Shown here in pieces: positions 2,373 through 32,000 of a stretch of DNA of 64,000 nucleotides. A model generated the notes under the pieces. The model did not search any database, was not told the origin of the DNA, and worked only from the letters and a program-made list of their open reading frames with translations. This DNA comes from Candidatus Gottesmanbacteria bacterium (GTDB lineage Bacteria > Patescibacteriota > Microgenomatia > 2-02-FULL-39-11). Position 1 is the first letter of the stretch; every line of letters starts with the position of its first letter. The position numbers and the translations under genes were made by a program. The stretch covers positions 925,892 to 989,891 of the forward strand of contig JACPKY010000002.1 of NCBI GenBank assembly GCA_016186795.1, read 5' to 3'.

Positions 2373-3482
2373 ATGCATTTCTTAGTACTGAAAGAAAATA
2401 TCCAAAAGATATTGACAATTGCAGGTAGAAATATTTCGAATAGACCACAACTTCCTATTCTTTCAAATATTCTTCTTAAAACAGAAAACGGAAAACTTAC
2501 CCTTGCAGTAACAAATCTCGAAATAGGGGTGATTTTCACTATCCCAGCAAAAATTGAAAAAGAAGGAGAAACAACCATTCCAGGGAAACTTCTGACCGAA
2601 TTCGTTTCACTTCTTTCAGCTGAAAAAATAGAGTTTTTATTGGAGGGGACAAATCTTCGCGTACTAACAAATAAAACAAAAGCGTCATTTTCAACAACTC
2701 CCCCAGCAGATTTTCCGCCGTTTCCGAAACCCCCAGAGATAAAAAATATGTTTTCATTTACAAAAATAAAAGACGCACTCACACATACAGTATTTGCAGC
2801 ATCACTTGACGAAGGAAGACCTGTTTTAACCGGAGTGAAAACTGTTGTTTCTAATGGGAAACTTACTCTCTCGGCAACCGACGGATACCGGTTATCGATG
2901 GAAAACGTTGATATTCCCGATAAAAAAGAAGAATTTACCCTGATACTTCCCTCCCAAACATTAACAGAAGTTATGCGTATTGCAGCTGATTTGAAAGTTG
3001 AGGATGTCGGATTTTCAATTATTGAAAATAAAAATCAAGCAGTGTTTACTTTTCCACAGGTTCATGTTTTTACTCGCCTTATTGATGGAGAATTTCCAAA
3101 CGTTGAGAAAATTATTCCAACCATGTTTAAAACAAAAGTGACGGTTGGGAGAGAGGAGCTTTTGCAATCGGTAAAAACAGCATCACTTTTTGCGCGTAGT
3201 GCTGCCAATATTGTGAAGGTAAAAGTTGAAAAAGAAGGTTTACGATTAAGCGCCGTAACTCCGCAGATTGGTGAGGATGAAGATTTCATTGAAACAAAGG
3301 TTGAGGGAGAGGAGGGAGAAATAGCGTTTAACTACCGGTTCCTTATGGATCTTCTCAATAATTTCCCCGAAGAAGAAGTGGTGTTTGAGATGTCTGGACC
3401 ACTTAATCCTGGGGTATTTAAACCCGCATCCGGAAAATCACCATTTCTTCATATTATCATGCCTGTCCGGATACAATCGTAA
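2373..3482 (+). CDS. dnaN: DNA polymerase III beta sliding clamp
   Basis: 369 aa, three-domain clamp architecture, typical N-terminus LTIAGRNISNRPQLPILSNILL, directly downstream of dnaA. Confidence 0.9.
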   Translation: MHFLVLKENIQKILTIAGRNISNRPQLPILSNILLKTENGKLTLAVTNLEIGVIFTIPAKIEKEGETTIPGKLLTEFVSLLSAEKIEFLLEGTNLRVLTNKTKASFSTTPPADFPPFPKPPEIKNMFSFTKIKDALTHTVFAASLDEGRPVLTGVKTVVSNGKLTLSATDGYRLSMENVDIPDKKEEFTLILPSQTLTEVMRIAADLKVEDVGFSIIENKNQAVFTFPQVHVFTRLIDGEFPNVEKIIPTMFKTKVTVGREELLQSVKTASLFARSAANIVKVKVEKEGLRLSAVTPQIGEDEDFIETKVEGEEGEIAFNYRFLMDLLNNFPEEEVVFEMSGPLNPGVFKPASGKSPFLHIIMPVRIQS

Positions 3483-5003: not shown

Positions 5004-7070
5004 TTATGGAGTCGATGGTGTTGGAGAGGTTATAGGTGCAGGTGACGCTTGACTTGGTTCTGGTTTAGTTGGCGGTGGAGATTGTGGGAATTGGACGTTA
5101 CTTTCAAGCGTTACAGATGATTGTAACGATTGAGGTTCAGAAGTTTGTTGAGTTTCATAGGATGTTTCTTGAGTTTCCTGAGGTTTGGATGTAGCAAGAT
5201 GATGTTCCTCAGATGAAGCAATGACTTGTATAGCAGCATGGGCAGTTCCGGCAAAGAAGAGTCCTTCTCCGACGTTTGCAGAAAGCAAGAAATGCTTTTC
5301 ACCACTTGAGAGGTAGAATACCTCAGCAAGTTTATCTATCGCTGCAGACGATTGTTTAAGGAGGATTTGTAAACTGGAATTGGTGATGATTGCTTTCCCA
5401 TGATCGGTTGAGAGAAAATCTTCCACATCCTGAGTGATGGTTGTTACCCCCAAGAAATATTTTCTTGCCCGTTTGGCAATGCCATAGAGAAAGGTTGCAG
5501 AGTCTGGGTGTTTCATAAGATACCACGCCTCATCAACAACGAGGATACGCTTCTTAACCGACCGTTTTATCTTGGTCCAGATAGAGTCTAGAATAATATA
5601 CATTGCAATTGGACGAAGCTCTTCCTCAAGTTCACGGATGGAAAAAACAGTTAAACGATTTTTCAAGTTCAGATTGGACTGTTGGTTAAATATTCCCGCA
5701 AGGCTTCCTTTGACGAATTTTTCCAACCGTTCCGCTAAATGTTTTGCCGTTTCTTCCTCCATTCCAAGGAGTGTTTTATATAAATCTTCAATAAGGGGCG
5801 GTTCATTTTTTTGCGTTGCCGGATCTGGAGTAATACCTTTCTGTTTGTAGGTAAGGACGAGCGCTCGATCAAGGAGAGCATCTTCCGCAGGGGTCAGTTG
5901 CCCCATGACGACTCGCATCAGGCCGTGGAGGGAAAGAATTTTTAGTCCTAATTCATTTTCTCCCTCCTCAAAAATTCCCGAAAGGTCGAAAGGGTTAATT
6001 TTTACAGGAGAAGTAAAGGAAAATTCAATAAGTTCTCCACCAAGAGCGCGTGTTAGCTCCTTGTATTCACCTTCAGGATCGATAATAAACACCTCTGTTC
6101 CAAAAAGAAGATGCCGCATCGTTTCAAGTTTGACAAGAAAACTTTTTCCGCCACCAGATTTACCAAAGACTACTGAGTTTGAGTTTTCCAAACTAAAGCG
6201 GTCAAAAATAACCAAACTTCCATCATGTTCGTTAATACCGTATAAAATTCCTTCGTTGGCAGTAAGAGATGCTGTTGTAAAGGGAAACGTCGTTGCAAGA
6301 GATGTAGTATCCATGTTTCTGGAAATCCCAAGCTTGTCAACCCCCATGGGGAGTGTTGAGTGGAAACCATCTTCTTGGGAAAGTGTTGCGTGTTTTGGGA
6401 TAATGAGGAGCGCTCCAAGACTTGATTCAACTTCCTTTGAAATGCGGCTTAATTCCTCCATTGATTCTCCTGGAATAGTGACATAGAGACTAAATTGGAA
6501 AAAACGTTCAGCGCCTTTTGCAAGTTGCGCCTGAAGCGCAAGGGCATCATCAAGGGCTACTTGAACCGAAGGATCAACAACTTTCCCCCTCTTCATGTCG
6601 GTTTGGACCGTTGCCTCCATCTCGGCAATTTTCCGCTTCAGATCTTCAAGGATAACTTTTGACTCCGTCGGATAACAAAACATTGAGATAAAAAGGGAAT
6701 GGTCAAACGAGAGAATCGGATGGAGCCAATTTGCTGAAACAAACCGCGGATAGCCCGCGACAAAAAGAGTGCGGTAATAACTATTATTTATTCGAATATT
6801 GTCAAAATCTACCTCAACAAGAGATGGAGCAATGAGGTCTTTAATATTCACCATTCCTTTGGCGAGTGTTTTTGCTGCGTCACGGAGTTTCGTATTCTGC
6901 GCTTGTCCTACCGTTCCTACGACGTGACTTACAGCGTGAGGAGTAGTAGAGTGTGAAACAGGTGGGACATGTGAAGTAATAGGTTTTTGTACAGATCCAC
7001 TCTGAATTGGATGCGGCAGTTGTGTTGTTTGAGTCGGTTGTGGTTTTTTGGAGAAAAACGGCAAATTCAT
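5004..7070 (-). CDS. VirB4/TraE/PrgJ-like type IV secretion (conjugation) ATPase
   Basis: Walker A VVFGKSGGGKSFLVK, Walker B ILVVDEAW, length and domain order of VirB4/CagE/TrbE-family ATPases. About 110-aa Pro/His/Thr/Ser-rich N-terminal leader. Confidence 0.8.
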   Translation of the reverse strand: MNLPFFSKKPQPTQTTQLPHPIQSGSVQKPITSHVPPVSHSTTPHAVSHVVGTVGQAQNTKLRDAAKTLAKGMVNIKDLIAPSLVEVDFDNIRINNSYYRTLFVAGYPRFVSANWLHPILSFDHSLFISMFCYPTESKVILEDLKRKIAEMEATVQTDMKRGKVVDPSVQVALDDALALQAQLAKGAERFFQFSLYVTIPGESMEELSRISKEVESSLGALLIIPKHATLSQEDGFHSTLPMGVDKLGISRNMDTTSLATTFPFTTASLTANEGILYGINEHDGSLVIFDRFSLENSNSVVFGKSGGGKSFLVKLETMRHLLFGTEVFIIDPEGEYKELTRALGGELIEFSFTSPVKINPFDLSGIFEEGENELGLKILSLHGLMRVVMGQLTPAEDALLDRALVLTYKQKGITPDPATQKNEPPLIEDLYKTLLGMEEETAKHLAERLEKFVKGSLAGIFNQQSNLNLKNRLTVFSIRELEEELRPIAMYIILDSIWTKIKRSVKKRILVVDEAWYLMKHPDSATFLYGIAKRARKYFLGVTTITQDVEDFLSTDHGKAIITNSSLQILLKQSSAAIDKLAEVFYLSSGEKHFLLSANVGEGLFFAGTAHAAIQVIASSEEHHLATSKPQETQETSYETQQTSEPQSLQSSVTLESNVQFPQSPPPTKPEPSQASPAPITSPTPSTP

Positions 7071-7747
7071 TATGTAATCCTTCCTAATCCTTCAACGAGC
7101 GGTTTGCCGTATCCTGAAATTTCTCCCAATTTTTCACCTGTCATTGTTGGGTTGTAGAGGTTGTAGAAGATCTCGACAAGCTCTTGTGTCGTAAGTTGTC
7201 TTCCTCGTAGCCCAAACCGATTCAACTGTCGTAGTAAATGATCACGTTTCGGCAAAAGTGATGTTTTTGCACGAGAAAGGATATAGTCTTTGGAAAAAGG
7301 AAGTTTTTTCTTCTTTCCAAATGCCCCTTTTACTCCCAGTTCTAAACTTGAGAAGGAGATGACGATATAAAATCTTTTTTCCAATACTCGGTTTTCTTTG
7401 ACAATTGAGAGGATAAATTCCTTATACCGACGAAGCCTTTCTTTCAAAATAACGTCAACTTGAGTTTCTTCGACCTGAGTTATCAGCTCAATATACGAAG
7501 AAATATCCATCCGCTTGGAAAGAATGACAATTTGAAGAGGAAAAGAGAGAGAGTTCAAAAGCGATGCATAGGCGTAAATAAGCGCATCCTGCTCATCTTC
7601 AGAAAGAAGGCCAAAGTTTACCGCAGTTGTTTCGACAAGAAGCGCCGCGGATCCATCTTGAAGTATAAGAATATCATCGGCGATATCCTCTATTCCTAAA
7701 AAATCTTGTGTTGTTGCTCGAATTGGACTGGAGGTTGGTTGTGCCAT
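7070..7747 (-). CDS. VirB4 N-terminal-domain-like protein (possible split-off N-terminal module of the conjugative ATPase)
   Basis: DFLGIEDIADDILILQDGSAALLVETTAVNFGLLSEDEQDALIYAYASLLNSLSFPLQIVILSKR resembles the conserved N-terminal region of Gram-positive VirB4 homologues. Its stop overlaps the ATPase start (ATGA). Confidence 0.45.
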   Translation of the reverse strand: MAQPTSSPIRATTQDFLGIEDIADDILILQDGSAALLVETTAVNFGLLSEDEQDALIYAYASLLNSLSFPLQIVILSKRMDISSYIELITQVEETQVDVILKERLRRYKEFILSIVKENRVLEKRFYIVISFSSLELGVKGAFGKKKKLPFSKDYILSRAKTSLLPKRDHLLRQLNRFGLRGRQLTTQELVEIFYNLYNPTMTGEKLGEISGYGKPLVEGLGRIT

Positions 7748-7815: not shown

Positions 7816-9123
7816 TTACGAATTTACGCTCCCAAATAGTTCTTTTGTGAGTTTTTCGCGCATGAGTTCACGTTCACCCTTTGCCAGGATTTCAATTGGA
7901 GGGAAAATGTTCCCCGAAAGAGTAATTTCAGCGATATCAAAAAAGTACCGCTTCAACGGATCTTCCATTTCCAAATGATATACGCCGTTTGACAATGGGG
8001 TTGCAGTAGAAAACTGGCCAAGCTTATTGGTTTTAAGTGCCCGAAGCGGTGTTCCGTTTTTGTCTTTAATGGTGACAATAATATTGGGAAGGAATTTTTT
8101 CTGCGGATCCTGAATGATCCCCACAATCATATTTGGGTATTGAGGGAAAGTCGCACCGATTTCTTTGGCTGTTGACGTTTGGGCGATCGTTTGGATTGTT
8201 GGTGGTTTTACCTCTTTCAACGCTGTTGGTGTCACAACTTCTGGCTGTTTGAGTTTTGCCAATTCTTCATGGAGACGTTTCAGTTCATTTTCTAGCGCCT
8301 CTTTCTCTTTTGCAATTTGATCCCACTTTTTTTGATAATTTTCCTTCCCCACCATAGGTGCAGTGTTTGTTAGAGGTGGTGAAACAGGATGTGTTTGGGC
8401 AATTGGTGTGGTACCGGCAGATGCAGGGACAGGAGGTTCTTGTGAAGGTTTTTGAGGTGTGGTATTTGGCGATGGCGCAATTGTGCTCTTTTGGGGTGAT
8501 GGACCGATAGGTACGTTTGATTGCAGTTTTTGACTAGGTGCTGAAAGAATTGTTTTGGGGACAGCATGTATTTGGTGAGGTACGGTGTGTGGTCGGCTAG
8601 CAATAACTGTATGAGTGCTGGAAGTGTTGGTATGAGGTTGTGGACCAAAAAGAGAAAGCGTATTTTCAAGATATTTTTTTTCAGCAAGGTTGAGATTTTC
8701 GTGTGGTTTTGAAGGGACAGTTGCCAGATACGCGGCTAGTTTTGATTTCGCTTCATTATGCTGAATGAGGTGTGTTGTGTTTGTGACCTGAATTCTGACA
8801 ACCGATGGTTGAGAAAACATATCGGCAATGATACTTTCCTTATGCCAGAGGTATTGTGTTGGAGAGAAGATGCTTCGTATGAAAGCCAAAAGCCATTTAT
8901 CAAGCGGTCGTTCCTGAATTGGGAGAAACGCAAATGCGACACCGCAAAACCCAAACAGGGCAGCGAGGGGAATATTTATAATCTGTGGAAGCGGTGAGAG
9001 ACGAAAGGTGACATACGCGATGAATGCGCCGCCGGCAAGATATCCGAATTGCCGAAGCGTCATGTCACCGATGAGGTGAAACTCAAAACTTGAAATGTTT
9101 CGAGGGACAGGATGTTGCTCCAT
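7816..9123 (-). CDS. PrgI-family (VirB3-like) membrane protein with a long C-terminal extension (Pro-rich linker, coiled coil, beta-sandwich-like domain)
   Basis: N-terminus FEFHLIGDMTLRQFGYLAGGAFIAYVTF...PLDKWLLAFIRSIF with two hydrophobic helices matches the PrgI-family pattern. First gene of the operon with VirB4. Confidence 0.5.
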   Translation of the reverse strand: MEQHPVPRNISSFEFHLIGDMTLRQFGYLAGGAFIAYVTFRLSPLPQIINIPLAALFGFCGVAFAFLPIQERPLDKWLLAFIRSIFSPTQYLWHKESIIADMFSQPSVVRIQVTNTTHLIQHNEAKSKLAAYLATVPSKPHENLNLAEKKYLENTLSLFGPQPHTNTSSTHTVIASRPHTVPHQIHAVPKTILSAPSQKLQSNVPIGPSPQKSTIAPSPNTTPQKPSQEPPVPASAGTTPIAQTHPVSPPLTNTAPMVGKENYQKKWDQIAKEKEALENELKRLHEELAKLKQPEVVTPTALKEVKPPTIQTIAQTSTAKEIGATFPQYPNMIVGIIQDPQKKFLPNIIVTIKDKNGTPLRALKTNKLGQFSTATPLSNGVYHLEMEDPLKRYFFDIAEITLSGNIFPPIEILAKGERELMREKLTKELFGSVNS

Positions 9124-9282: not shown

Positions 9283-12200
9283 ATGGCGGGAAGCCTTATT
9301 AATTTTACGCGCTATTTTAGAAGAGGGAGCAAGAATAATACTCCAAGCGATACTCCTGTTCAAGCAGATGCACATGCAAATGTTTCTCAAGAATTACCCA
9401 CAGAAACAAGCACTGTTCCTCAACCACATACGGCATCGTCAGTAGCCTATTCTGGAATTGGTAACCCGCCGGGTGGTATCTCCTACTCAGGTATTGGGAA
9501 TCCTCCAGCTCCTGCGTCGGCTGTAGGGAAAGGTCAGGTAACTTCTGCAATTGACAGTGGAAAACGTGTTGGTATGGATGTCCTGTCAAGACTTACCCAA
9601 CGGGCAAATCAATCACTCATGGCAAGTGTGACCAAAGCGAAAGAGTTAAAAATTCAGTACGTTGATACAGAGCACGTTCTCTGGGGGCTTCTCCACGATA
9701 GCAGTATTTACCAGCTTTTGTCTGAATGTAAAATTACTCCAAGTGAGCTGCAGGCTGAACTTGAGAAGGCATTTACATCAGGCAACTTTTCCGGACAACC
9801 TCATTTTTCCCCGAGAGTGAAACGAGTGTTGGAGCTTTCCCTATCTGCCGCGCGCTCGCTTGGGTACGAGTTTATTTCTCCGGAGCATATTCTCTTGGCT
9901 TTATCCCATGAGGGGGAAGGAGTGGCAGCGCGGATGCTTATTAAATACTCGCTCACGCAAGAGGTTCTAAATCAGAAGATAACAGGGAAGAAAGATCTGG
10001 AAAAGCAGGAAGAGCAGAAAAAAACTTCTGCCCTTGATGATTATACAGAAGATTTGACGGCAAAAGCCGTGCAAGGTCAGCTCGATCCTGTTGTCGGGCG
10101 AAGCGCCGAGATTGAAAGGATCGTTCATATTCTTTCAAGAAGAACCAAGAATAATCCGGTTCTTATTGGAGATGCCGGGGTAGGGAAAACAGCAATTGTA
10201 GAAGGTTTAGCACTTCGGATTGCCCACGGTGATGTCCCTGAGACGCTTCTTCATAAACGGATACTTCTCCTTGATCTCATGTCTTTGATTGCAGGGGCAA
10301 AACATAGAGGAGAGTTTGAGGAGCGGTTAAAAAATCTTATAAAAGAAGTAAAGGCGGCAACAGGCGCAATTATTCTTTTTGTCGATGAGATGCACAATAT
10401 GGTTGGTGCGGGAGGAAGCGGTGAGGGGACAATGGATGCGTCAAATATATTAAAACCATCTCTTGCTCGGGGTGAACTACAGGTTATTGGTACGACAACA
10501 ATAACAGAGTACCGTACGCATATCGAAAAGGATCCAGCTCTTGAAAGACGATTCCAGCCGGTGTATGTCGCAGAACCAACTGCTGAAGTAGCAATTGAGA
10601 TGCTTACTGCTCTTCGAGATAAGTACGAAGCGTTTCATAGGGTAAAAATATCTGATGAGGCAATTGAGGCAGCTGTCAGACTCTCGCAACGCTACATTGG
10701 TGACAGATTTCTTCCAGATAAAGCGGTCGACCTTATTGATGAGGGTGCTGCTGCCGTTCGCTTACCTTCAATTTCTCTTCCTGAAGAAATAAAATCGTTA
10801 GAAGATCGCCTTAAAAAACTTGAAAGTGAGAAAAGTGAAGCCGAAAAACTAGGCGATAGCGTCCATCTCGAGAGTCTTAAAAAAGAAGAGGAAGAACTTC
10901 GTGAACACGAAAAAAACCTTCAAGAGCAGTATCAACTGAAAAAATCAACCACAACGAATGCTGTTACCCCTGCAATTATTGCTGATATTATTTCCCGATG
11001 GACAGGTATTCCAGTTTCCCGGCTTACCGAGAGCGAGTCAACGAAACTGTTGGAATTAGAGGGGACTATTCATAAACGACTTATCAATCAGGAGGAGGCG
11101 GTCGTTGCTGTTTCTGAGGCAGTACGGCGTGGAAGGGCGGGACTGAAATCGAACAAGCGTCCAATCGGTAGTTTTGTCTTTCTGGGGCCAACTGGGGTTG
11201 GAAAAACTGAGCTCGCCAAAGCGTTGGCCGAAATTCTATTTGGAAGTGATGAAATGATTGTTCGGCTTGATATGACTGAGTATATGGAGAAGCACGAGGT
11301 GGCAAAACTCATTGGGGCTCCTCCAGGATATGTTGGGTATGAGGAAGGTGGGCAGCTGACTGAGGCAGTGAGACGGCATCCTTACTCTGTTGTCTTATTT
11401 GATGAAATCGAAAAAGCACACCCTGACGTATTCAATATTCTCATACAACTTCTCGATGACGGTCGTTTAACCGATAACAAAGGGCATACGATTTCATTTA
11501 AAAATACAATTGTCATTTGTACGTCAAATTTGGGAAGCGGCATCATTCAAGAGGAAATGTTGGGATGGAAGGAAAATGATCAGATAAAAGATAACGGTAA
11601 ACAGAAAACAGAAATATTTCAGACGTATGCGATTTCTCCAACCGGAAGGGAAATTGTAACTCTTGACGGGGATTATTGGGAGAAAGATGGGAAAGGCCAG
11701 TGGAAGAAAGGATCGCTTGTTGAGTATTTTGCTGGCTCAACGCTATCAAACGGCCAAGACACATTTCCTGTTGAAGGTTTTGACACACATACAATTTCTC
11801 AAGACGGTTCAGAAACGATTACAAGCGGTGACTCTCTTTGGTTTCGTACTTCAACAACGGTACGGGAATGGAGCATAGAAAAACTCGTGCCTTACTTCAA
11901 AAATCACATTGTTATAAACGCCAAACCCGATAAACCAGAGGAACAATTACCAACGGTGCGGATAGATTCCCATGCCCTCTCCCCTACCAACGAGGAAATT
12001 GTGACGTATGAGGGGCGGTTTTGGAAAAGGCAAAATCTTGCCTCAAAAGATTGGATGACCGGAGACATTTCTGAGTATTTTGCAAATTGCAAAGTGGAGA
12101 CCTCCACGGAAGAAAAACAAAAAGCAGCTGGAACTGGAAAAGGAGGGAATTTGATTACCAAAATGTCGCAAGAGAAACCTCAACAAGACGTATTCCCGAT

Positions 12201-13251
12201 AGACAAGTGGGATAGCCATCTCTTTACCCCGCTTGGAGAAGAAATCATTATTTCTAAGGGAAAGTACTGGAAGAGAAAATCGGCAGATGTTACGGTATGG
12301 AATATGGGCAACATTTCTGATCTTTTTTCTAAGGATAGAATGGTGGGAGATGTACCAATTGGGAGAGAGAAAGAAGAAGCAAAAGTTGGTAACAGTGCGT
12401 CTGATGACCAGTTTCAAAAACTTTCAAAGAGACTCATGGAGGAACTGCGGAAATTCTTCCGTCCTGAACTTCTGAACCGTTTTGATGAAGTCGTTGTTTT
12501 CCGTCCGCTAACCCGAGATCACATGCTGGAGATTGTCGGACTTCAGGTGAAGCTACTTTCAAAACTCCTTACCGAGCAAAATATTGCAATAGAAGTCAGC
12601 CACGACGCTTCGGTGTATCTATCCAAAGTAGGGTACGATCAAGTATTTGGCGCAAGACCTTTGAGAAGAATAATTCAACGCTTGGTTGAAAATCCTATTT
12701 CCTCGCTTCTTATTAAAGGCGAATTAGCAAGTGGGGGTCGCGTGCATGTGACATATGAAGGTGACCAACTTCAGTTTCAGATCCAAAAAATAGAAATGAA
12801 AAATGCTCAAACTCCTTCTCCGACAGTTGTCGATGAAAAGCGGCAACCTCTCCAAACCAGTCAACCGACACTTCAATCTCCGAAGCCGCTGGAGGAGAAA
12901 GTGTCCTACGGTTGCCAAAACTGCGGGCATACATGGGAAGAAGCAAAAAGTACGCATAGTTTGGTCTGCCCTGACTGCGGGAGTGAACTTATTTCACAAA
13001 AGGCCGAGTCTAGTACCTCTCAAGGGCCAGAACCATCAAAAGAAGAGAAACAAAATCCCCTTGAGATGTACTATCAACCGACAGATCAGGCAAAGAATGA
13101 CGTCTCACCTACACCCGTTTCCAAAGATTCCTCCTCAAGCGGCGTCTCAGGTTGCAGATACTCCCCCTTTTACGCGTTCCTTTCCCAAAGAGAGAAGAAA
13201 AAGGAGACTAAGGTATACAAGGCTGTTAAAACCGGTCATGAGAAAAAGTGA
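9283..13251 (+). CDS. ClpC/ClpB-like double-ring AAA+ unfoldase with an atypical roughly 300-aa insertion in D2 and a C-terminal C4 zinc ribbon
   Basis: Clp N-domain, D1 Walker [16 protein letters not shown] and Walker B LFVDEMH, short ClpC-like middle domain, D2 Walker [16 protein letters not shown], sensor region [15 protein letters not shown]. Alternative start at 9574 (M of MDVLSRL); the upstream 97 codons carry a GNPP tandem repeat. Confidence 0.85.
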
Positions 13252-13872
13252 AAGGGCAAAAAACTGGAATACTTCATCTGTCACAAGAAGAAACGTATTG
13301 GGGAAAACGACTCTTAATCCTGTTTGAGAAAGAAAAAGGAAGAGAATGATAATGATTGGTCCGGCAATAATAAGGCTCTCAACATCTTTTTTACTTGAAA
13401 ACATTGTCATCGATGTAACAAATAATAGATAACAAAGAATAGGTAACAGAACGAAAGAATACTGATTGGTTGTTATCCAGGAGAGGTTCACAAAAAATAT
13501 TTTTCCAAGAAAATAAATGAATGACAATCCCATAAGTATTGGTGCAAGACCAACAATTGCGTGTCTAAAAGGATCAACTTTTGCAATCATGAGCTTCCCA
13601 GCCCGAATCGTTCCATCTTTTTCGATTGTGGGAAAGATAGAAAGTTCGCCAGTTGGTACAAAAAGGATAAGAGCTACAAAAAAATGAGACAGCTCATGGA
13701 TGATGGTTCCCGGCAAAAGCACTATCGTGACAGCAAAAAGAGCCGCAGTTTTACTTCGTGTAGCAAGATATGCAAGAAGGTAGATAAAAGTAGATATTTT
13801 TTTAGAAAGGACAAAAAGGCAAAGTAGGAAGAGTATCGAAAGTATAATGTAGAAATAGAAAGGCAACGACAT
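13147..13872 (-). CDS. Polytopic membrane protein with HExxH motif (IIHELSHFF) in a TM helix; putative intramembrane zinc metalloprotease (site-2-protease-like)
   Basis: 6-7 hydrophobic segments with HELSH inside a helix. No clear second LDG motif, so family assignment is tentative. Confidence 0.4.
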
Positions 13873-15521
13873 TAACGTTCTCTTTCCTGAGTCTCCCGAG
13901 GTCCACCTGTGTCAAAGACGCTCAGTCCCATCGGGATCATCCCAATACCCATGAGAATTCCTAAGAAAGCCCCATCTGAGAGTCCCCGCTGCTTGGCCAT
14001 CTCTGCAATCTGAGCAGGAGTGACACTAAGGAGTCTTCTTAATGTGCCAATCTGCTTGTTATCAATATTAGCTCCCTGTGCAATTGTGGCTGTTCGATCG
14101 GTAACAAACTTAATGGGATTTTTCATAACATCTCTATCGAGACCTAGCTCAGTCTGGAAGAAAGAGGTTACTCCTGCGAGTTTATGACCGCGGAGAAGAG
14201 CTCGAACAAATCCCACTTCATGGGGATTTAATCCACCTTGATGAGATGCGCCAAGAAGGAGACCCTCGATACGTTCGGAAAGATTAGGATCTCGCGGATC
14301 TATCGAGTCAAGAGCGTGCTGGATACCATTCATGTACAAGAGGGTTGATTCCATCCGGATTTCACCGTTTTCGATCCGCTGGAGTGTTTGAGTGGCAAAC
14401 GCTTGCTCGGCAGGTGTATCGTCATAGAGGGCGCGAATGAGAATTTCCGTCTGTTGGTGGAGCGGGTCGTTTCCTTCGGTTTGGTAATAGAGAATATTTT
14501 CATTCATCTCGGCTCCGAGTTGGGTGATAGTTTCAACGGATAAATGCGCAGCGTGTCCTTGTGGAGAAAGTATAGCTTGCGTTGCACGAGTTACTCTGGC
14601 TGCAAAATTATCAATATTTCCGCTTCCGGATGTAAGGGCGTTTTCCAAGACGGAAGTCCAGAGCCCTACGACAAAAAGTTGCTGGTCTCCAGCTGGATCT
14701 TTCCCAAGTCCGGCGTAATATTCAGTAACAGCCTTGATTGCATGGTATGCTGTTGCCTTTACTTTTTCTCCCCGAGCTTTTACTGCTTCAGCCGATTGGG
14801 CTTCTGGAGTAGGTGGAGTAGCTGCCTTGTCTTCTCCTCCTTGGATCATAAATCGCATTTTCACTTTTGCGTTCGGATCCTCATCCGGTTTTAATCCACA
14901 GAGTTTCTGTTTTGCAGCAAGACGTCTGGCAAATCGTGTATGGGGGTCTACTTTTGCATCATCCCGGAATTGTTCCAAAGGAAACATCCCTTTGGCTTCA
15001 TTATCAACCATGTCATCCCATGCTCGGAGAGACATCGGTTTTGTAACCGTTCCATCGGCAAGAGTGACAACAACTTCTGTGCCGTCAAGGAGGCCACTGC
15101 GTGTTTCAACCGAAGAATCATGATGAGCTTTTTGCTCTGGAATTGCACTTCCGTGCGTTTGTGCTGCAATCCATTCGAGATTATCGATTGATGCAGGGTA
15201 GACGGATGATTGTAATAGTACACGATCATCATCAGTTGGTTTCTCCTTTTTCCTAAACGTGTTCATTGTGCTTTGGGCCTGTTCCATATTTTCCTCATGA
15301 AGCTCAAGAAGCTTTGCGAGGCCATCTCTTTCTGTATCTTGGGCTGTTGATAGTTTTTTTCCTAATTCAGCTGCACTTTCTGCTCGGTATGGTTCACCTT
15401 TAAAAAGAAGAAAACTTGCCTCTCTGGTAAGGTGCTGGCAATCTGTGGGTACAAGCGGTTTAACGGGAAAAGATTCTGGTTTTAATGTGACGATTTCTAG
15501 TGGAGCAGGAGCTGCTTGCAT
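13872..15521 (-). CDS. Hypothetical 549-aa protein with C-terminal TM anchor
   Basis: Long ORF with coding-like composition, GC-elevated, divergent from the giant repeat protein. No recognised domain. Confidence 0.45.
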   Translation of the reverse strand: MQAAPAPLEIVTLKPESFPVKPLVPTDCQHLTREASFLLFKGEPYRAESAAELGKKLSTAQDTERDGLAKLLELHEENMEQAQSTMNTFRKKEKPTDDDRVLLQSSVYPASIDNLEWIAAQTHGSAIPEQKAHHDSSVETRSGLLDGTEVVVTLADGTVTKPMSLRAWDDMVDNEAKGMFPLEQFRDDAKVDPHTRFARRLAAKQKLCGLKPDEDPNAKVKMRFMIQGGEDKAATPPTPEAQSAEAVKARGEKVKATAYHAIKAVTEYYAGLGKDPAGDQQLFVVGLWTSVLENALTSGSGNIDNFAARVTRATQAILSPQGHAAHLSVETITQLGAEMNENILYYQTEGNDPLHQQTEILIRALYDDTPAEQAFATQTLQRIENGEIRMESTLLYMNGIQHALDSIDPRDPNLSERIEGLLLGASHQGGLNPHEVGFVRALLRGHKLAGVTSFFQTELGLDRDVMKNPIKFVTDRTATIAQGANIDNKQIGTLRRLLSVTPAQIAEMAKQRGLSDGAFLGILMGIGMIPMGLSVFDTGGPRETQERER

Positions 15522-15611: not shown

Positions 15612-18600
15612 ATGAGTTCTTCTTCTGCCGATGCTATTCATCACCAACCATTTCCTGCAACCGTTGCTGAATCGGTTCCTTCAACTCCTGTTAATCAGGT
15701 TAATCAGGCTGGTTGGCAAACTGCCGAACCTCAACGACCTCAATTTGGTGCATATGAGAGAGGACGTATTGTTCCAGGAGCCAATCGGGAAGCCGGAGTT
15801 ACTCCCCATACCGTTGTTGAGCTTGGTCTTGATACCGAACTTGAGCTTTTTGATTCTCTCGAGGAAATAGTAAGTTTCCTTGATAAGTCCGATAATAAAG
15901 ATGCTCTTTCTCTCCTCTCAGAGGTTATGAAGGAAAAAATGGTTGATTTAAGAGACAGGGCTGCCGCTCTTTCCTTGGAGAGGAAAGATATCGAGGAACG
16001 GAAAGCAATTGAGGAAGAGTATGAAGAGGCTGTTAGACAAACAGCAAGACAACGGTTAGGTTTTAACTATGAGGCGAGAAATCGGACAACACGAGATGAT
16101 AAGTTGAAAAAACTGAATAAAAAGATTGAGAGGCGAAGAAAGGCAATTGAGGAATACAACAAAACGAGACCTGGAGAGACTCCTACACCTGGTGAAAAAC
16201 CAAAAAAAGTACCAAGAGAGCTTGAAGAGCTTATCAGTGATCATAATCTTGGATTAAGCGATTTAACTCCTGAAGACCTCAAGACCCGATTAGAAGCATA
16301 CCTTAAAAAAGACAGAAAGCCTTTGCAGATATTTGATAACCTCACCGATGTCATGCAAGCGTATTCCTTCCTTGAGAGTGCGGAGAAGATTGTTGCACTT
16401 CAAGCAGGACAAGATATTACCGATGGTGGGAGAAGACCTGTTGAGTTTGATTTTTCGGATGCAACAATTAATCGGGTAGCTCAAGCCGGGGTTCCAAACA
16501 CAACGGTGCAAGCACTCCGCGACATTGGGAGAAGAATCCGGATTGGAGATGTATTCGGAGTACAAGAGCTAATTGCAGGATTGTCGGTTGGGACCGTTGA
16601 AGCTCTCATGAATGCGCATAATTTTTGGCCTGCTCCAGGTGATGCTGCCCAAGCCGGTGCAGCGTTTGCCTTGGGAGTTGGGAGTATGCTATTTGTACGA
16701 GCAGTAGGTCGAAGAATGAACCATTGGCGCCTATCTTTTCCTCCGGAACGAGCTGAACAGAGAACTCAATATACGCTACAGTTTCACTTCATTCAACCTC
16801 CGCCCGGGGATGGAGGGAATCCTTTGCGACGAATGTACGGTGGTGATGCACGCCGAGCCGAACAATTCCTACAAGCAATTGATAATGTTCGTGTCGACAT
16901 TGCTAATAAACTAAAAGTCCATCCAGGACAGCTGGAGGGGTGGCTAAATTTAAGTAGTGCTGCATTAGGTGAGAGCGTTGAGGGGATGGAATTTCCTCAT
17001 CGAGTTGTCCTTGCTAAGAATATCGAACAAATATTGGCTCAAGAACATCGGAATGCGACTGGTGGCCATATACCGCTTGAGGAGTTATCAGCTGAGGAGC
17101 AGATTGAGGTTATTGAACGGGCGTTTGATGGAGTTGCACTTGCCATTGGCGGGGAAGCTATGGATGATGTAACTAAAAATGCGGCGATACGAAGAATGAT
17201 GGGAGAAGTTAATTGGGCTCAGCGGAGAAACGTTCTTGCAACTCATGTTGCAGAAATCCGGGCAGGAACACGCGTCTACCATGCAAGCGTGACTCCTCAC
17301 GCTTTAGAAGAAGCAAGGACACAGTTTGAGGCAGCAGAAAAGCAGGAAGCGCGACAATCTCAGGGGAAAGACGCATACGGAGCAAAATATACTGAGCTTC
17401 AAAATCAGTTGAGAACCTTGGAAACAGCGCGAATTGAGCTTGAAAATATTTCGACAATCAACGGTCATATTACAAGAGACGTTACAGTGAAGGGGAGAAA
17501 AGTTCATGAAGATGCAAGCGGAGAGATAGGGGTACTTGAGGCTGAAAAAACAAGGATTGATGGAGAAATTACGAAGCTTAAGGGTGAAATTGATGCAACA
17601 AATGCAAATGGACTGGAGGGTCAGTATAAACAAGCAAAACGCCGCTATGAAACGCTCCATGGGAAAGTTGAGGCTCTAAAAAGTAAGAAGCAAGCGGCGC
17701 AAGCAGAGATTGATACCCTTCAACGGGGAAGAGATAGAGCGAAAGCTGCAAAAATTGCTCAGTGGGAATCTATTCGAGATCAGGCAGAGCAGAATTTAAC
17801 AACTGCGCCATCTGGGCAAAAGACTCTGGAGGAACAGGAAGATGATGCATATTTAGCCTTTGTGCCACTCAAAGATCAGTATGAGCCAAAAACGGCAGAA
17901 GTTGGACGATTACAACAAAGGCAGAATGCAATCCCTGGTGAGATTCAAGCATTTGAGAGGGCAATTGCAGAGAAAGAGAAACTCTATCGAGTAGCTCAAT
18001 TGAATTATACTCTTGCCCAAAAAGAAGTACTTACTATTCTTCAGGATTTTGGATACAAATACACACCTGCTCAGTTGAGGAGTAGCTCACTTCGACTCCC
18101 CACGTCGCAAATGATTACTGACAAGTATACAGAACTCCATGTCGAGTATCAGGTGAAACAGAATCGTCTTACGGAGTTGGTAAGGCTTGCTGAGGCGGGA
18201 GTTAGTGAAGAAGATCTTCGGATTGCAACGCTTATTGAAACACTCTCAGGTGTTGTTGGTTCAGATCGTCTTAATAGTTTTATGCAGCAGCTTCTTTCCC
18301 GAGGGATAAAGTTGGAGGATCTTGCCAACACACAAAACAACGAGGGATATCACCTCATGTTAAAGTTCTTTTTCGGTGAGGATGCACTCACTCAAGGGAA
18401 GGACGGGAAGTATGCTCGAGCAACGACACTTCTAAGTAAAGCTCGATTATGTGATGAAGCTTTCAAAATCTGGCGCATCGATGATCGGGCATCAGGCGAT
18501 GGGTTTTTTGCAGGAGATGATGAAGGTCTACAACTATATCAGAATGCTCGTTTTATTTTTGAAACCAATAGAAGACTCACTCAGGAAGTTTTTAACCTTG

Positions 18601-20831
18601 AAAATGCAGTTGGGCAAACCCCTGCAACAATTGCTCTTATTGAACGGCGCCGAAGAGAAATTGCTGCAAACGAGGTAAAACGAAATGAAACGCTAAGTCA
18701 ACTTTACGATTCTCGTATCGCTCCTCTACTTTCTCTAGATAGAGTAAGAACCGGAATGGTTGTCATGCAGACGTTCCAAAAGCTTTCTGATGATGCGCTC
18801 AATGGATTTGTTGAACTAACTCCATCACCATCTGGGGCTCATGAAGAACTGGTGACTACTTCAGCCGGCCGAATGGTGATTACCGAGGCAAGCCACGACA
18901 CACTTACGCGAACAGTGATCGAACGTGGGGCGCTTAAAACTGAAAACATCGAAGGCGTGCCAGGGGTATCTATTGAGATGCATGTGACATCACTTGGTAC
19001 TCCAGGAAGACTTGATACGACAGTTGTTCTTGATCGTGATCAAGGAGTGGGTGATCGGATTGCAAATAGAAATTCCGCAGATACACCGGATGAAATCAGA
19101 TATATTTTCCATGGTGAGCCAAATAGACGGAGAGAATTTGTTGATACTGCAGCATTTACCGATGACTTATGGAATCTTTTGCCTGACCAAAGAGGAGATG
19201 CGAGACGTTTAGGAGTACCAAACGAATTTCTTGATTGGGTATATGGGGTGAATAGTTCTGGGGGTACTCCGAAGCGGCCTGTTGCAGAACTTCGCACATC
19301 GGCAATCAATATGTCCAATATGCCCGATGTACGGGGAAACTTCCGAGGTGTACCTTTGGAAATGCAGGACTTTTTTTACTACTACGATGATGCACGGAGA
19401 AGAGCAACTGTTGACTTAAACACAGTGACGGATGATGTTATAGCCGATATTGGCCCAGCCGATCGTCGTGGGGCTCTTGCTTCTGGTTTGCCTCAAGAGT
19501 TTGTCGATTTATTCTATAACCTTGATACGCCGGGAACTGTCAGATCTCTTGCCGATGTTCAAACGGCACTTGGTACAGTTACCGATGCAATGCTACAAAA
19601 TCTTCCTGATAGTAGAGTTGATGCGCTTAGTGAGGGATATCCGCAGCAATTTGTTGATTTTTTCTACGGCTCGGATATTCCTGGCGGGAAAAGGACCGTT
19701 ACTGCTTTGGAAAACATGGCAGGGACTGCAACCCTTGATGCTACTCAGTTTCCATCAACAGCTCAAATGGCTCGGAATATGGGGTGGTCAAATGACGTTG
19801 TGAATTTACTGTATGATCAGGCAAGCGGAGATTTACTCGATGATGATGGACTTACTGATCTTCTAGAAAATCGTGCACAGGATTTACTTAATGTGATGGG
19901 TCCGGCTGATCGAAATGCAGCTGTCGGGATGCCACAAAGTCTTATTGATATCGTCTATGCAGAAAATCAGCCAGGTAGAAAAAGGGTGGCTGCAAACGTA
20001 CGAGCCGATGCAGGAACTATCACTCCTGCACTTCTTGGCGCACTTCCTGCCGATCGACAGGGTGCACGGACTGAAGATTATCCCGATGAGATTGTTAGAC
20101 TTTTTTACGAAGCAGACAGAGCAGGGACGAAAAGAAACTTAGCAGAAGTTCAAGCGGCTTTACCGGGAGCTGCATTTCGTATCGATCAACTTCCTGAACT
20201 TGGGAATGCTTTAATCAATGGAGGTATTTTAGGTACAGATGCCTGGAGGTTTTTTTACAACCAAGTGACCGATATTAGACGGACAAATAGAAGTATCGAC
20301 GTATTTATCGAAGGACTTCCGGATGACCGTGTCAATGCACCTCCAGGGTTTGGGACTGCTTTAGACGTTCTCTATGATGCGACATCAGGGAAGAAGAGAA
20401 GTCTCCAAGATCTCCGAAAAATTCCACTCCATCGACAAGGGACATTTGGACGTGTCGAGTCACTTCTTGATAATCTTGGGATGGGTCCCATCGTTTATGA
20501 CCAGTTTGCCCAAGAAATTACCATGGGTGTTGCACAGATGGATGCTGTATCTCAGTCGAGACTTCTTGGAGACAGATTCCAGGAAGTTGTTGCTGGGAAT
20601 TTTCGAGTATACCTCATGAATGGTCAGTTGGGGATATATTTCCGTGATCCTCCCGATCCTGCGCTTCCAGAAAGAGTATCACATCGAATGTCGCTTCATC
20701 AATTTATCCAGGCCGATACCTACCCTCCAGAAGTCGGTGCCTATCTTACTCAAAATCCCGGAATAAAACGCGGAATTCTCATTAATACCGCACCGGCAAT
20801 TATTGAAGCTGTTCGAAATATATCGGTATAA
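15612..20831 (+). CDS. Giant 1739-aa protein: coiled-coil-rich N-terminal two thirds, one probable TM segment (about aa 340-365), C-terminal array of about nine tandem repeats of roughly 46 aa (LPxxRxxA..G.PxEFVDxFY...PGxKR)
   Basis: Uninterrupted ORF. Repeat units read directly between about 19180 and 20430. Composition GC-elevated (about 50%) versus the flanks. Confidence 0.6.
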   Translation: MSSSSADAIHHQPFPATVAESVPSTPVNQVNQAGWQTAEPQRPQFGAYERGRIVPGANREAGVTPHTVVELGLDTELELFDSLEEIVSFLDKSDNKDALSLLSEVMKEKMVDLRDRAAALSLERKDIEERKAIEEEYEEAVRQTARQRLGFNYEARNRTTRDDKLKKLNKKIERRRKAIEEYNKTRPGETPTPGEKPKKVPRELEELISDHNLGLSDLTPEDLKTRLEAYLKKDRKPLQIFDNLTDVMQAYSFLESAEKIVALQAGQDITDGGRRPVEFDFSDATINRVAQAGVPNTTVQALRDIGRRIRIGDVFGVQELIAGLSVGTVEALMNAHNFWPAPGDAAQAGAAFALGVGSMLFVRAVGRRMNHWRLSFPPERAEQRTQYTLQFHFIQPPPGDGGNPLRRMYGGDARRAEQFLQAIDNVRVDIANKLKVHPGQLEGWLNLSSAALGESVEGMEFPHRVVLAKNIEQILAQEHRNATGGHIPLEELSAEEQIEVIERAFDGVALAIGGEAMDDVTKNAAIRRMMGEVNWAQRRNVLATHVAEIRAGTRVYHASVTPHALEEARTQFEAAEKQEARQSQGKDAYGAKYTELQNQLRTLETARIELENISTINGHITRDVTVKGRKVHEDASGEIGVLEAEKTRIDGEITKLKGEIDATNANGLEGQYKQAKRRYETLHGKVEALKSKKQAAQAEIDTLQRGRDRAKAAKIAQWESIRDQAEQNLTTAPSGQKTLEEQEDDAYLAFVPLKDQYEPKTAEVGRLQQRQNAIPGEIQAFERAIAEKEKLYRVAQLNYTLAQKEVLTILQDFGYKYTPAQLRSSSLRLPTSQMITDKYTELHVEYQVKQNRLTELVRLAEAGVSEEDLRIATLIETLSGVVGSDRLNSFMQQLLSRGIKLEDLANTQNNEGYHLMLKFFFGEDALTQGKDGKYARATTLLSKARLCDEAFKIWRIDDRASGDGFFAGDDEGLQLYQNARFIFETNRRLTQEVFNLENAVGQTPATIALIERRRREIAANEVKRNETLSQLYDSRIAPLLSLDRVRTGMVVMQTFQKLSDDALNGFVELTPSPSGAHEELVTTSAGRMVITEASHDTLTRTVIERGALKTENIEGVPGVSIEMHVTSLGTPGRLDTTVVLDRDQGVGDRIANRNSADTPDEIRYIFHGEPNRRREFVDTAAFTDDLWNLLPDQRGDARRLGVPNEFLDWVYGVNSSGGTPKRPVAELRTSAINMSNMPDVRGNFRGVPLEMQDFFYYYDDARRRATVDLNTVTDDVIADIGPADRRGALASGLPQEFVDLFYNLDTPGTVRSLADVQTALGTVTDAMLQNLPDSRVDALSEGYPQQFVDFFYGSDIPGGKRTVTALENMAGTATLDATQFPSTAQMARNMGWSNDVVNLLYDQASGDLLDDDGLTDLLENRAQDLLNVMGPADRNAAVGMPQSLIDIVYAENQPGRKRVAANVRADAGTITPALLGALPADRQGARTEDYPDEIVRLFYEADRAGTKRNLAEVQAALPGAAFRIDQLPELGNALINGGILGTDAWRFFYNQVTDIRRTNRSIDVFIEGLPDDRVNAPPGFGTALDVLYDATSGKKRSLQDLRKIPLHRQGTFGRVESLLDNLGMGPIVYDQFAQEITMGVAQMDAVSQSRLLGDRFQEVVAGNFRVYLMNGQLGIYFRDPPDPALPERVSHRMSLHQFIQADTYPPEVGAYLTQNPGIKRGILINTAPAIIEAVRNISV

Positions 20832-20839
20832 TATCTAGT

Positions 20840-21220
20840 ATGACTGTCAATTTCGTTGCCTTACTGAAACTTGCCAATTTTCCCAAAGAGAAAATTGAAG
20901 CGCTCATGAAAAATATTGACTATGTGACTGAAGATGAGAAGTTTCGCCTTTCTAATCTTGCGTGGTACTTTATATCCAATAAATATTTCCTTCGGCTTTC
21001 CCTGGAGGAAAGGAAAGTTTTACAAGAGGTCAAGGAAGGGAAACGGGTATACAACCCAAGCGATTTGGAAGAAATAAAAGCCCGACTTACTCATGAATTA
21101 GCACAGAGCCTTCAAGCAGCAGATACCCAGCAGTCAATGGAGGATATCCGAAAGCAGCTAGAGATGCACAAGACAAAACCTCTTCCGGTTGATTCCTCTC
21201 CTCTACCGCAGAAAAAGTAA
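20840..21220 (+). CDS. Hypothetical 126-aa protein
   Basis: ORF directly downstream of the giant gene. No recognisable domain. Confidence 0.35.
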   Translation: MTVNFVALLKLANFPKEKIEALMKNIDYVTEDEKFRLSNLAWYFISNKYFLRLSLEERKVLQEVKEGKRVYNPSDLEEIKARLTHELAQSLQAADTQQSMEDIRKQLEMHKTKPLPVDSSPLPQKK

Positions 21221-21311
21221 CTCACGATTTTTCTGGAGGGATTGTCCATTTCGGATTTTTTCAGAAACTATTCGCTTCCGATTTCTGCAAACATCTGCTA
21301 CTCTAAAAGGT

Positions 21312-21746
21312 ATGGCAAATCTTATTGTCCATACCGACGGTGGTGCCAGGGGTAATCCCGGATCTGCGGCAATTGGGGTGGTGATCCAAACTACTTCCGG
21401 AAATATTTTGCACCAAGTTTCCCGAACGATTGGCGAAACGACAAATAACATTGCAGAGTATCAGGCAGTCGTTGAAGCATTGACGTTTTTGCAGGAAAAT
21501 ATTCCGAACGCGACATTCAGTCACATTGATGCAATCAAATTTTTCCTCGACTCAACGCTTGTCGTAAATCAATTGAATGGACTTTTTAAAGTGAAGGAAC
21601 CAATGCTTCGGGAGTACCTTCTCAAAGTCCGTACACTTGAACAAGGTATCGGCAAACCTATCACCTATACATATGTTCCTCGGGAAAAAAATGCACATGC
21701 AGACAGACTTGTCAATAACGCATTGGACGGACAAAGATACTTCTGA
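21312..21746 (+). CDS. rnhA: Ribonuclease HI
   Basis: MANLIVHTDGGARGNPGSAAIGVV...NNIAEYQAVVEALTF...REKNAHADRLVNNALD, the RNase H DEDD fold motifs. The ORF-track start 21189 is an upstream extension; ATG at 21312 is preceded by AAAAGG. Confidence 0.8.
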   Translation: MANLIVHTDGGARGNPGSAAIGVVIQTTSGNILHQVSRTIGETTNNIAEYQAVVEALTFLQENIPNATFSHIDAIKFFLDSTLVVNQLNGLFKVKEPMLREYLLKVRTLEQGIGKPITYTYVPREKNAHADRLVNNALDGQRYF

Positions 21747-31564: not shown

Positions 31565-32000
31565 TTTTAAAAGGGAAAGATAGAACGAATAACTAGAGAA
31601 GTACCCTTTGATGCGGAAAAATGTCGATAGAAATGGATTTTTGGGAAGTATAAGTCGAAAGTGACGTGACGAATAAATTGTATGGAGGGAATGGGACGAT
31701 GCAGAAGAGCTAGCTATTCTTTTTTTCCTAAAAAGATTCTGAAACGTACGTTTTCCGTTCATAAGTAGATGAACAAATATCTTCTTCTGTATACGCAAAA
31801 CTGCCCTAAGGAATGTATATTCCAAAGTAAGGAGGGTAGTACTAAAAGAAAGGAGTAGATCCCCAATAATTTTTAGGAAATAGAGAATACTTATAGGGAT
31901 GGAAAAGAGAACCGATAGGAATAAATTGTTTGTCTTATAGGATTTTTTCTTCATCGGGGAAGAACTATAGCACAGGTGAAGGGCATTTGTGAAGGGGATA

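Follow-up and report, generated by a model that had tools for sequence, protein, structure and literature searches.

A ClpC-like Hsp100 gene of a Candidatus Gottesmanbacteria bacterium, lying in a stretch of 64,000 nucleotides (contig JACPKY010000002.1, positions 925,892 to 989,891; hereafter the window), encodes an unfoldase whose second AAA+ domain (D2) is interrupted by a large insert. Predicted structure and sequence comparison make it very probable that this insert is a hemopexin-like (PEX) four-bladed propeller of about 245 residues, attached through a flexible linker on each side to the P-loop tip of D2. In Hsp100/Clp motors, the peptidase-docking loop decides which partner the motor feeds. 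If the propeller has indeed taken over from it, the protein would represent a natural swap of the docking loop for a folded binding domain, and thereby a new way to re-wire an AAA+ unfoldase across a large part of the Patescibacteria. To our knowledge, a hemopexin-like domain within a cytoplasmic ATPase has no precedent.

The gene and the parts of its insert are as follows.

Positions 9283..13251, plus strand: ClpC-like Hsp100 gene, 1322 residues (Pfam, motifs, best Protein Data Bank (PDB) matches Staphylococcus aureus and Bacillus subtilis ClpC).
Positions 11542..11607, plus strand: N-terminal half of the P-loop and flexible linker, residues 754-775, with LGW at residues 760-762 (nucleotides 11560-11568); predicted local distance difference test (pLDDT) score about 50.
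Positions 11608..11739, plus strand: propeller blade 1, residues 776-819 (repeat hidden Markov model (HMM); four strands and a short helix, pLDDT >92).
Positions 11740..11904, plus strand: propeller blade 2, residues 820-874 (repeat HMM, AlphaFold2 model).
Positions 11905..11958, plus strand: linker between blades 2 and 3, V-I-N-A-x-P-D-x-P-E-E-Q-L-P-T, residues 875-892 (conservation in the alignments A1 and A2 described below).
Positions 11959..12087, plus strand: propeller blade 3, residues 893-935 (repeat HMM, AlphaFold2 model).
Positions 12088..12201, plus strand: low-complexity linker between blades 3 and 4, residues 936-973 (pLDDT 51-73; length very variable among homologues).
Positions 12202..12333, plus strand: propeller blade 4, residues 974-1017 (repeat HMM, AlphaFold2 model).
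Positions 12334..12480, plus strand: C-terminal linker, with [ILF]-P-[LIV] containing the invariant proline 1025, AKV at residues 1033-1035, and a helix leading into FRPELLNR (alignments).

The repeats had already been noticed in an earlier reading of the letters alone (the sequence-only reading), which described three copies of a unit of about 37 residues. Its three motifs are present, at residues 784-818, 899-935 and 981-1017, and so are the insert borders that it gave and the open reading frame. ICTSNLGSG occupies residues 745-753 (nucleotides 11515-11541) and the arginine-finger/sensor-2 segment residues 1060-1076 (nucleotides 12460-12510). The count and the unit length, by contrast, need revision. 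The repeat HMM detects four copies, at residues 771-820, 825-874, 886-937 and 968-1019, the second of which, within blade 2, had been overlooked, and the unit is about 45-55 residues long. All six blade pairs score above shuffled controls (z = 7-17; 0 of 500 shuffles reach the score). At the DNA level, a repeat scan returned one weak 32-nucleotide pair at 72% match and nothing else, indicating that the duplication of the blades is ancient rather than recent.

The AlphaFold2 model of residues 754-1059, built with 98 homologues, has a mean pLDDT of 85.3 and a predicted template modelling score of 0.78. It forms a closed propeller of four blades, each of four antiparallel strands, which is the hallmark of hemopexin-like domains. 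Every repeat folds into four strands and a short helix at a pLDDT above 92, while the flanks and the linker between blades 3 and 4 are of low confidence. When Foldseek was run with this model, the top 22 matches were all hemopexin-like.

Direct library searches with the insert were negative. The Pfam Hemopexin model (PF00045) gave no match to it at E-values up to 10, Pfam and NCBIfam scans assigned it to no significant family, and a match to CBM30 (20.6 bits against a cutoff of 27) was judged to be chance. The insert alone found nothing in a word-indexed search of 5.8 billion proteins, though the identical protein is in that collection, so this result reflects the sensitivity limit of the search and not absence. 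A search of 1.84 billion representatives with the A2 insert profile gave 53 matches, a number that does not measure family size, because ClpC clusters at 50% are presumably often represented by insert-less proteins.

The sequence link to hemopexin runs through other proteins of the same phylum. The insert profile matches secreted patescibacterial proteins outside the ClpC family that carry three or four copies of the same repeat (E-values of 1e-20 to 1e-4): P0143, P0157, P0162 and P0164, which are GH39/42-like, P0144 (DUF2961), P0169 (peptidase C39-like) and P0151. Their repeats, of the form 'IDAAYFD..G.YTVIKGDRYWYR..W..TL..AY', are near the canonical hemopexin motif. P0151 is matched by the insert profile at E 3e-10 and by Pfam Hemopexin at 24.0 bits against a cutoff of 21.3, and a second secreted protein comes close. 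Since the predicted structure and this transitive link (insert profile to P0151 to PF00045) agree, the insert is best described as a divergent hemopexin-like propeller. The sequence-only reading did not recognise the repeat and named a match to a known domain family as something that would refute it; the Foldseek result and the transitive Pfam link go part of the way to such a match, although no library model detects the insert directly.

Two WD40 proteins among the weak profile matches (P0161 and P0168) were taken as generic blade similarity. More widely, P0141-P0171 include C-terminal hemopexin-like four-repeat modules on secreted enzymes, some with dockerin, most of which escape the Pfam Hemopexin model. 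Another match, P0136 (352 residues), is short and divergent: it has one AAA_2 module only, with an insert of four repeats at the corresponding site, and may be either a fragment or a distinct D2-only family.

Conservation within the insert was read from two alignments, A1 (98 sequences) and A2 (insert only, 25 sequences), with positions given in insert numbering. The most conserved stretch is the linker between blades 2 and 3, in which V124, N126, A127, D130, Q135, P137 and T138 are invariant in A2. In A1, N126, D130 and Q135 are strictly invariant (98 of 98), and V124, A127, P137 and T138 are conserved in at least 90% of the sequences. A similar linker follows blade 4 in some homologues, which, as far as sequence goes, hints at a 2+2 origin of the propeller. 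The blades share the motif [FL]P...[FW]D[ST]H / SP.G.E / I.T / G...W.R / W / L..YF. A counterpart of the tunnel-lining aspartate ('DAA' motif) was sought by sequence only; strand 1 carries D-[ST]-H in blades 2-4 and Q-T-Y in blade 1. The only cysteine of the insert, C936, lies in the linker between blades 3 and 4, which rules out a disulfide between blades 1 and 4, in keeping with a cytoplasmic location.

A frameshift, a chimeric assembly, an intein or another mobile element could in principle produce such an insert, and the genome does harbour an intein, with a LAGLIDADG homing-endonuclease domain, in its ribonucleotide reductase large-subunit gene (window 56585-60016). The data already refute this explanation, whose probability we regard as practically nil. 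The reading frame is continuous across the insert, the identical protein occurs in independent assemblies, and the same architecture recurs in more than 100 independent assemblies with insert identities of 33-54%. No intein, Hint or transposase match was obtained with Pfam or NCBIfam, and the confident fold and the conservation pattern indicate purifying selection on a folded propeller.

The insert is also widespread in orthologues, as the sequence-only reading had proposed to check. A full-length search returned the identical protein from independent assemblies (P0001) and about 110 homologues of 1200-1830 residues, from Gottesmanbacteria, Roizmanbacteria, Microgenomates and Parcubacteria. 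Among 121 sequences examined (the window protein and its 120 best homologues), 113 carry at least three repeats at this site, 96 carry four, 13 carry seven or eight, and 7 carry none. The seven repeat-less proteins are from Gottesmanbacteria and have a low-complexity linker in place of the propeller. When each GTDB species was represented by one genome, a pattern scan confirmed the insert in at least 128 species genomes. The insert is nevertheless not universal in the phylum, because a Saccharibacteria genome encodes a ClpC of normal length (823 residues), together with ClpP (PMC10633639).

The seven- and eight-repeat inserts span 480-577 residues (P0057, P0058, P0060, P0063, P0064, P0075, P0079, P0080, P0082, P0086, P0108, P0112 and P0119, one of them labelled Parcubacteria) and could be either two tandem four-bladed propellers or one eight-bladed propeller. 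Many TPA_asm records of metagenome-assembled genomes with this gene (L011, L014, L015, L018-L020 and others) are titled 'uncultured Gammaproteobacteria bacterium', which looks like a placeholder or a mislabel.

The motor that carries the propeller is, by most tests applied to its sequence, a ClpC-like class-I Hsp100. Pfam and motif matches give the order low-complexity N-terminal extension, two Clp_N repeats, D1 AAA+ domain, short M-domain, insert-split D2 AAA+ domain, D2-small domain, zinc ribbon and tail, and the Pfam families found are Clp_N (twice), AAA, AAA_lid_9, AAA_2 and ClpB_D2-small. The sequence-only reading had likewise named a ClpC-like unfoldase, in agreement with the full-length PDB ranking (S. 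aureus ClpC 810 bits, B. subtilis ClpC 805, ClpB 741). The M-domain aligns with few gaps to that of S. aureus ClpC, identifying it as the short ClpC type, and both Clp_N repeats are kept. Walker A and B motifs in both AAA+ modules, the TSN of sensor-1, the GYVG of D2, the RPELLNR arginine finger and the GARPLRR of sensor-2 are all present; with its ATPase and D2 pore-loop motifs intact, the ClpC-type motor looks functional. The aromatic D1 pore loop expected of the ClpC subfamily is not found, as the tyrosine of K-Y-RGEFE is replaced by histidine (K-H-RGEFE) at residue 341 (window 10303-10305), a replacement shared by 116 of the 121 sequences. The protein also misses the NCBIfam equivalog cutoffs for ClpB (967 versus 1232), ClpA (749 versus 993) and ClpV1 (TIGR03345; 730 versus 885), and D2 taken alone scores highest against the D2 of Thermus thermophilus ClpB.

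Within D2, the insert lies between sensor-1 and the arginine-finger region, where it had been placed from the letters alone. The Pfam AAA_2 match is split there: profile positions 1-146 stop at residue 771, and the remainder picks up about 290 residues on. The alignment to S. aureus ClpC locates the site more narrowly. It is unbroken over residues 101-759 (residues 3-669 of S. aureus ClpC, with residue 759 opposite R669) and restarts at residue 1033, where AKV (residues 1033-1035) pairs with A671-G672-F673. In S. aureus ClpC, residues 660-680 form an extended P-loop whose AGF tip docks in the hydrophobic H-sites of ClpP, and mutation of G672 or F673 abolishes ClpP binding (PMC12521514). Because the insert borders align to R669 and to AGF 671-673, the propeller sits exactly at the tip of the ClpP-docking loop. 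The sequence-only reading was thus right that a short loop normally occupies this site, which can now be specified as the docking P-loop of ClpC. Since this loop lies on the substrate-exit face of the D2 ring, the propeller would be expected there too.

This position bears on the idea, put forward in the sequence-only reading, that the insert is an extra platform for substrates or adaptors, in which the propellers would catch their ligands and pass them to the pore. Hemopexin-like domains are indeed protein- and ligand-binding modules, as in the PEX domains of matrix metalloproteinases (MMPs) and vitronectin among the Foldseek matches; the related propellers of the phylum serve secreted hydrolase-like proteins as accessory modules at the C-terminus; and the flexible tethers confer reach. 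The insertion point, however, is on the ClpP-facing exit side of D2, whereas the substrates and adaptors of ClpC engage the side of the N-terminal domain, the M-domain and D1, with the MecA crown on top near the pore entrance (PMC12521514). The window protein, moreover, retains both the N-terminal domain and the M-domain. For a domain on the exit face, docking or regulation towards a downstream partner is more probable than service as a platform for substrates or adaptors, which we consider doubtful.

We then asked what has become of the docking tripeptide. In the window protein, LGW (residues 760-762) comes shortly ahead of the insert and is off the AGF register by one residue at most. A hydrophobic-Gly-aromatic/aliphatic tripeptide precedes the propeller in 18 of the 110 propeller-bearing homologues and follows it in 5; the form [LMI]GW is found in 11, most of which are the nearest relatives of the window protein. 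The remaining 92 of 110 (84%) have no docking-type tripeptide before the propeller. Judged from these sequences, the docking tripeptide is lost in most of the propeller-bearing family.

The retained LGW could nevertheless mean that ClpP docking is kept and that the propeller is an accessory, such as a spacer, a stabiliser or a gate, of a ClpP-dependent protease. Its register and its concentration in the closest relatives speak for this, as does the existence of ClpP in at least some Patescibacteria, and it is possible for the sub-clade of the window. Yet the propeller is conserved across the 92 homologues that have no preceding tripeptide, and the ClpB of T. thermophilus, which does not bind ClpP, has 'KGW' at this site. 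A 25-kDa domain a few residues past the tripeptide would also crowd the H-site of ClpP. A tblastn search with E. coli ClpP as query found no clpP in the window (64 kb) or in any of 85 related loci, which is weak evidence and says nothing on whole genomes. As a general account, continued ClpP docking appears unlikely to us.

A further alternative is that the propeller is a ligand- or metal-sensing regulator, in which binding of an ion or small molecule in the tunnel would exert allosteric control over the D2 ATPase. Hemopexin folds bind ions in the tunnel and ligands such as haem, the titles of matched entries name calcium, sodium and haem, and D-[ST]-H is conserved in strand 1 of blades 2-4. 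The insert also lies directly against the helix through which ClpP contacts are passed on to the arginine finger in S. aureus ClpC (PMC12521514). Long disordered tethers on both sides, on the other hand, are poor allosteric transmitters, and the element conserved most strongly is the surface linker between blades and not the tunnel. A sensor of this kind therefore seems to us very unlikely.

We propose instead that the propeller takes over the P-loop tip position at which ordinary ClpC carries the ClpP-plugging hydrophobic-Gly-Phe tripeptide. The hexamer would then present six tethered, disc-shaped propellers on the exit face of D2, at the usual place of ClpP. PEX domains are about 40-50 Å across, so a ring of six would fit under the D2 ring. 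These propellers would block or replace ClpP docking, and the recipient of the threaded polypeptide would meet a new surface to interact with. They would then form a platform on which a partner other than ClpP docks or binds, and the best candidate for the functional interface would be the invariant stretch that joins blades 2 and 3. That the propeller is a docking platform replacing ClpP and coupling the unfoldase to another downstream partner is a proposal for which we see the odds as evenly poised.

A zinc ribbon, following the D2-small domain, is also on the distal side.

Positions 12913..12981, plus strand: C-terminal CxxC...CxxC zinc ribbon, residues 1211-1233 (sub-threshold Pfam zinc-ribbon matches).

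It is present in 72 of the 110 propeller-bearing homologues and in 0 of the 7 propeller-less proteins. At the opposite end of the protein, the low-complexity N-terminal extension of about 100 residues contains a duplicated AYSGIGNPP ... SYSGIGNPP at residues 55-76 (window 9445-9510), and a motif of the SYSGIGNPP type occurs one to three times in 82 of the 110 propeller-bearing homologues. The public protein P0001, otherwise identical, stops at residue 1290, where the window has TGC (Cys) at 13153-13155 and runs 32 codons longer; the difference in length may be strain variation at the stop codon.

The genomic neighbourhood offers candidates for a downstream partner. The window covers the origin region, with dnaA (831-2195) and dnaN (2373-3482) followed by an unknown gene of 485 residues and then by a minus-strand type IV secretion block. 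This block lies immediately upstream of clpC and is divergently transcribed, and on the other side clpC meets a membrane-protein gene, its second most conserved neighbour.

Positions 5004-7070, minus strand: VirB4-like ATPase (Pfam).
Positions 7070-7747, minus strand: TraC/TrsD-like gene, 225 residues (Pfam).
Positions 7816-9123, minus strand: PrgI/VirB3-family gene (Pfam).
Positions 13147..13872, minus strand: polytopic membrane protein of 241 residues, with an invariant HExxH...D.

The virB4/trsD-like/prgI order is shared by 10-12 loci of the Gottesmanbacteria type, including a genome whose ClpC is 64% identical. The remaining 67 loci are arranged differently, with a small gene on the same strand after clpC at a median gap of 4 nucleotides. 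All 45 tested members of this small downstream family match the Pfam family T4SS_pilin (PF18895; best E 1.4e-12), and a VirB2-like pilin gene stands directly downstream of clpC in 59 of the 86 loci. In the window and in the loci of the Gottesmanbacteria type, jackhmmer found no member of the pilin family. Polytopic membrane proteins are encoded divergently upstream of clpC in 35-40 loci. By gene adjacency, clpC is thus embedded in a secretion cluster, as would befit a ClpV-like role.

In Patescibacteria, type IV secretion genes (VirB4, TrsD, PrgI/VirB3, VirB6 and VirB2-like pilin arrays) are located near dnaA/dnaN, that is, near oriC (PMC12102498), and epibiotic growth requires the secretion system and the pilin arrays (PMC10633639). 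The cluster has no cluster-encoded coupling protein (PMC12102498, PMC10633639), and no Clp ATPase is mentioned in PMC12102498, including its supplements, or in PMC10633639. As the direct neighbour of secretion and pilin genes that come without their own coupling protein, the gene is a concrete candidate for a part of patescibacterial biology that is still unexplained.

The membrane protein of 241 residues is probably, from its sequence motifs, an M50-like intramembrane metalloprotease of a new M50/M50B-like family restricted to Patescibacteria. Its family has an invariant H-E-x-x-H and M-F-S-S-x-x-D and an all-helical model (pLDDT 94); weak matches to Peptidase_M50B or M50 occur in 15 and 9 of 71 members, respectively, and no Pfam family of its own was found. 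The gene adjoins clpC in 50 of the 86 loci, convergently in Gottesmanbacteria and elsewhere co-directionally between clpC and the pilin gene. In the window, the 3' ends of clpC and of this convergent gene overlap by about 105 nucleotides (13147-13251).

The likeliest partner would accordingly be sought in the membrane-embedded type IV secretion/pilin machinery or in the adjacent intramembrane metalloprotease. We tentatively suggest, as a possibility well short of even odds, that the propeller-bearing ClpC has been re-targeted from ClpP to a membrane machine. Either it would serve the type IV secretion system or pilus of Patescibacteria, as cytoplasmic unfoldase or 'coupling' ATPase, or it would form one half of a two-part, FtsH-like AAA+ protease with its M50-like neighbour.

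Several points weigh against a platform that replaces ClpP and faces such a partner. That the propeller lies under the ring is a deduction from where the P-loop is known to be, and the LGW kept in the window protein and its closest relatives could still bind ClpP. In at least one other patescibacterium, the Saccharibacteria genome mentioned above, ClpP occurs alongside a ClpC of normal length (PMC10633639). The link to the secretion components is drawn from gene order, and clpC and the secretion cluster both lie near oriC, where housekeeping genes also cluster, so that their adjacency may partly reflect a shared regional preference.

Other genes of the window were also recorded. Large open reading frames lie beside the locus, encoding 549 residues (13872-15521, minus strand) and 1739 residues (15612-20831, plus strand); the former has no Pfam match, and no more than 2-3 Gottesmanbacteria loci have weak homologues of the two in the corresponding place. 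An RNase H/RVT_3-like gene of 185 residues (21189-21746) is followed by a DUF4012 gene (21847-24240), a pair kept in 6-7 Gottesmanbacteria loci. On the minus strand, at 29621-34289, two tandem genes for class A penicillin-binding proteins (transglycosylase and transpeptidase) overlap slightly.

Public records call the propeller-bearing proteins only 'AAA family ATPase' or 'ClpC'. Literature searches (ClpC and the candidate phyla radiation, hemopexin and AAA+, ClpP and Patescibacteria) found no publication in which the peptidase-docking loop of a Clp/Hsp100 protein carries a folded domain, hemopexin-like or otherwise, and we know of no folded domain inserted at that loop. The closest known proteins are the ClpCs of S. 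aureus (6em8) and B. subtilis (3j3s) and Mycobacterium tuberculosis ClpC1, which share the domain order and all ATPase motifs with the window protein. As compared to them, the window protein has a propeller of 245 residues and its linkers in place of the AGF tip, a docking tripeptide that is not conserved in its family, a low-complexity N-terminal extension, a C-terminal zinc ribbon, and histidine for the D1 pore-loop tyrosine. ClpB, which does not dock to ClpP, has no more than a short helix-loop here, and its M-domain is long, in contrast to the ClpC-type M-domain of the window protein.

The propeller itself is only 10-14% identical to known PEX domains (the C-terminal domains of MMPs, vitronectin, hemopexin and the legume albumins PA2, CP4 and LS24). 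Unlike them, it is cytoplasmic and nested in an ATPase domain, has an additional invariant linker between blades 2 and 3, and does without the disulfide between blades 1 and 4. The secreted hemopexin-like proteins of Patescibacteria have repeats of the same length and motif, but theirs are stand-alone terminal modules of extracellular enzymes, of the 'IDAAY..YTVIKGDRYWYR' type, and are nearer to canonical hemopexin.

Functional domains nested in AAA+ folds have precedents in the I-domain of HslU and the M-domain of ClpB and ClpC, although those are inserted at other sites and are α-helical. ClpV (TssH) of type VI secretion provides a functional analogy only: it is an Hsp100 without ClpP coupling that is encoded in, and serves, a secretion system, but it recognises its target through the N-domain and has no inserted propeller, while the secretion link of the window gene consists of adjacency. 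The most direct parallel for the site is the engineered BAP chimera, a ClpB with the P-loop of ClpA (PDB 5ofo), in which this segment alone reportedly decides ClpP coupling; in the window protein, nature has put a folded domain in the place of this segment.

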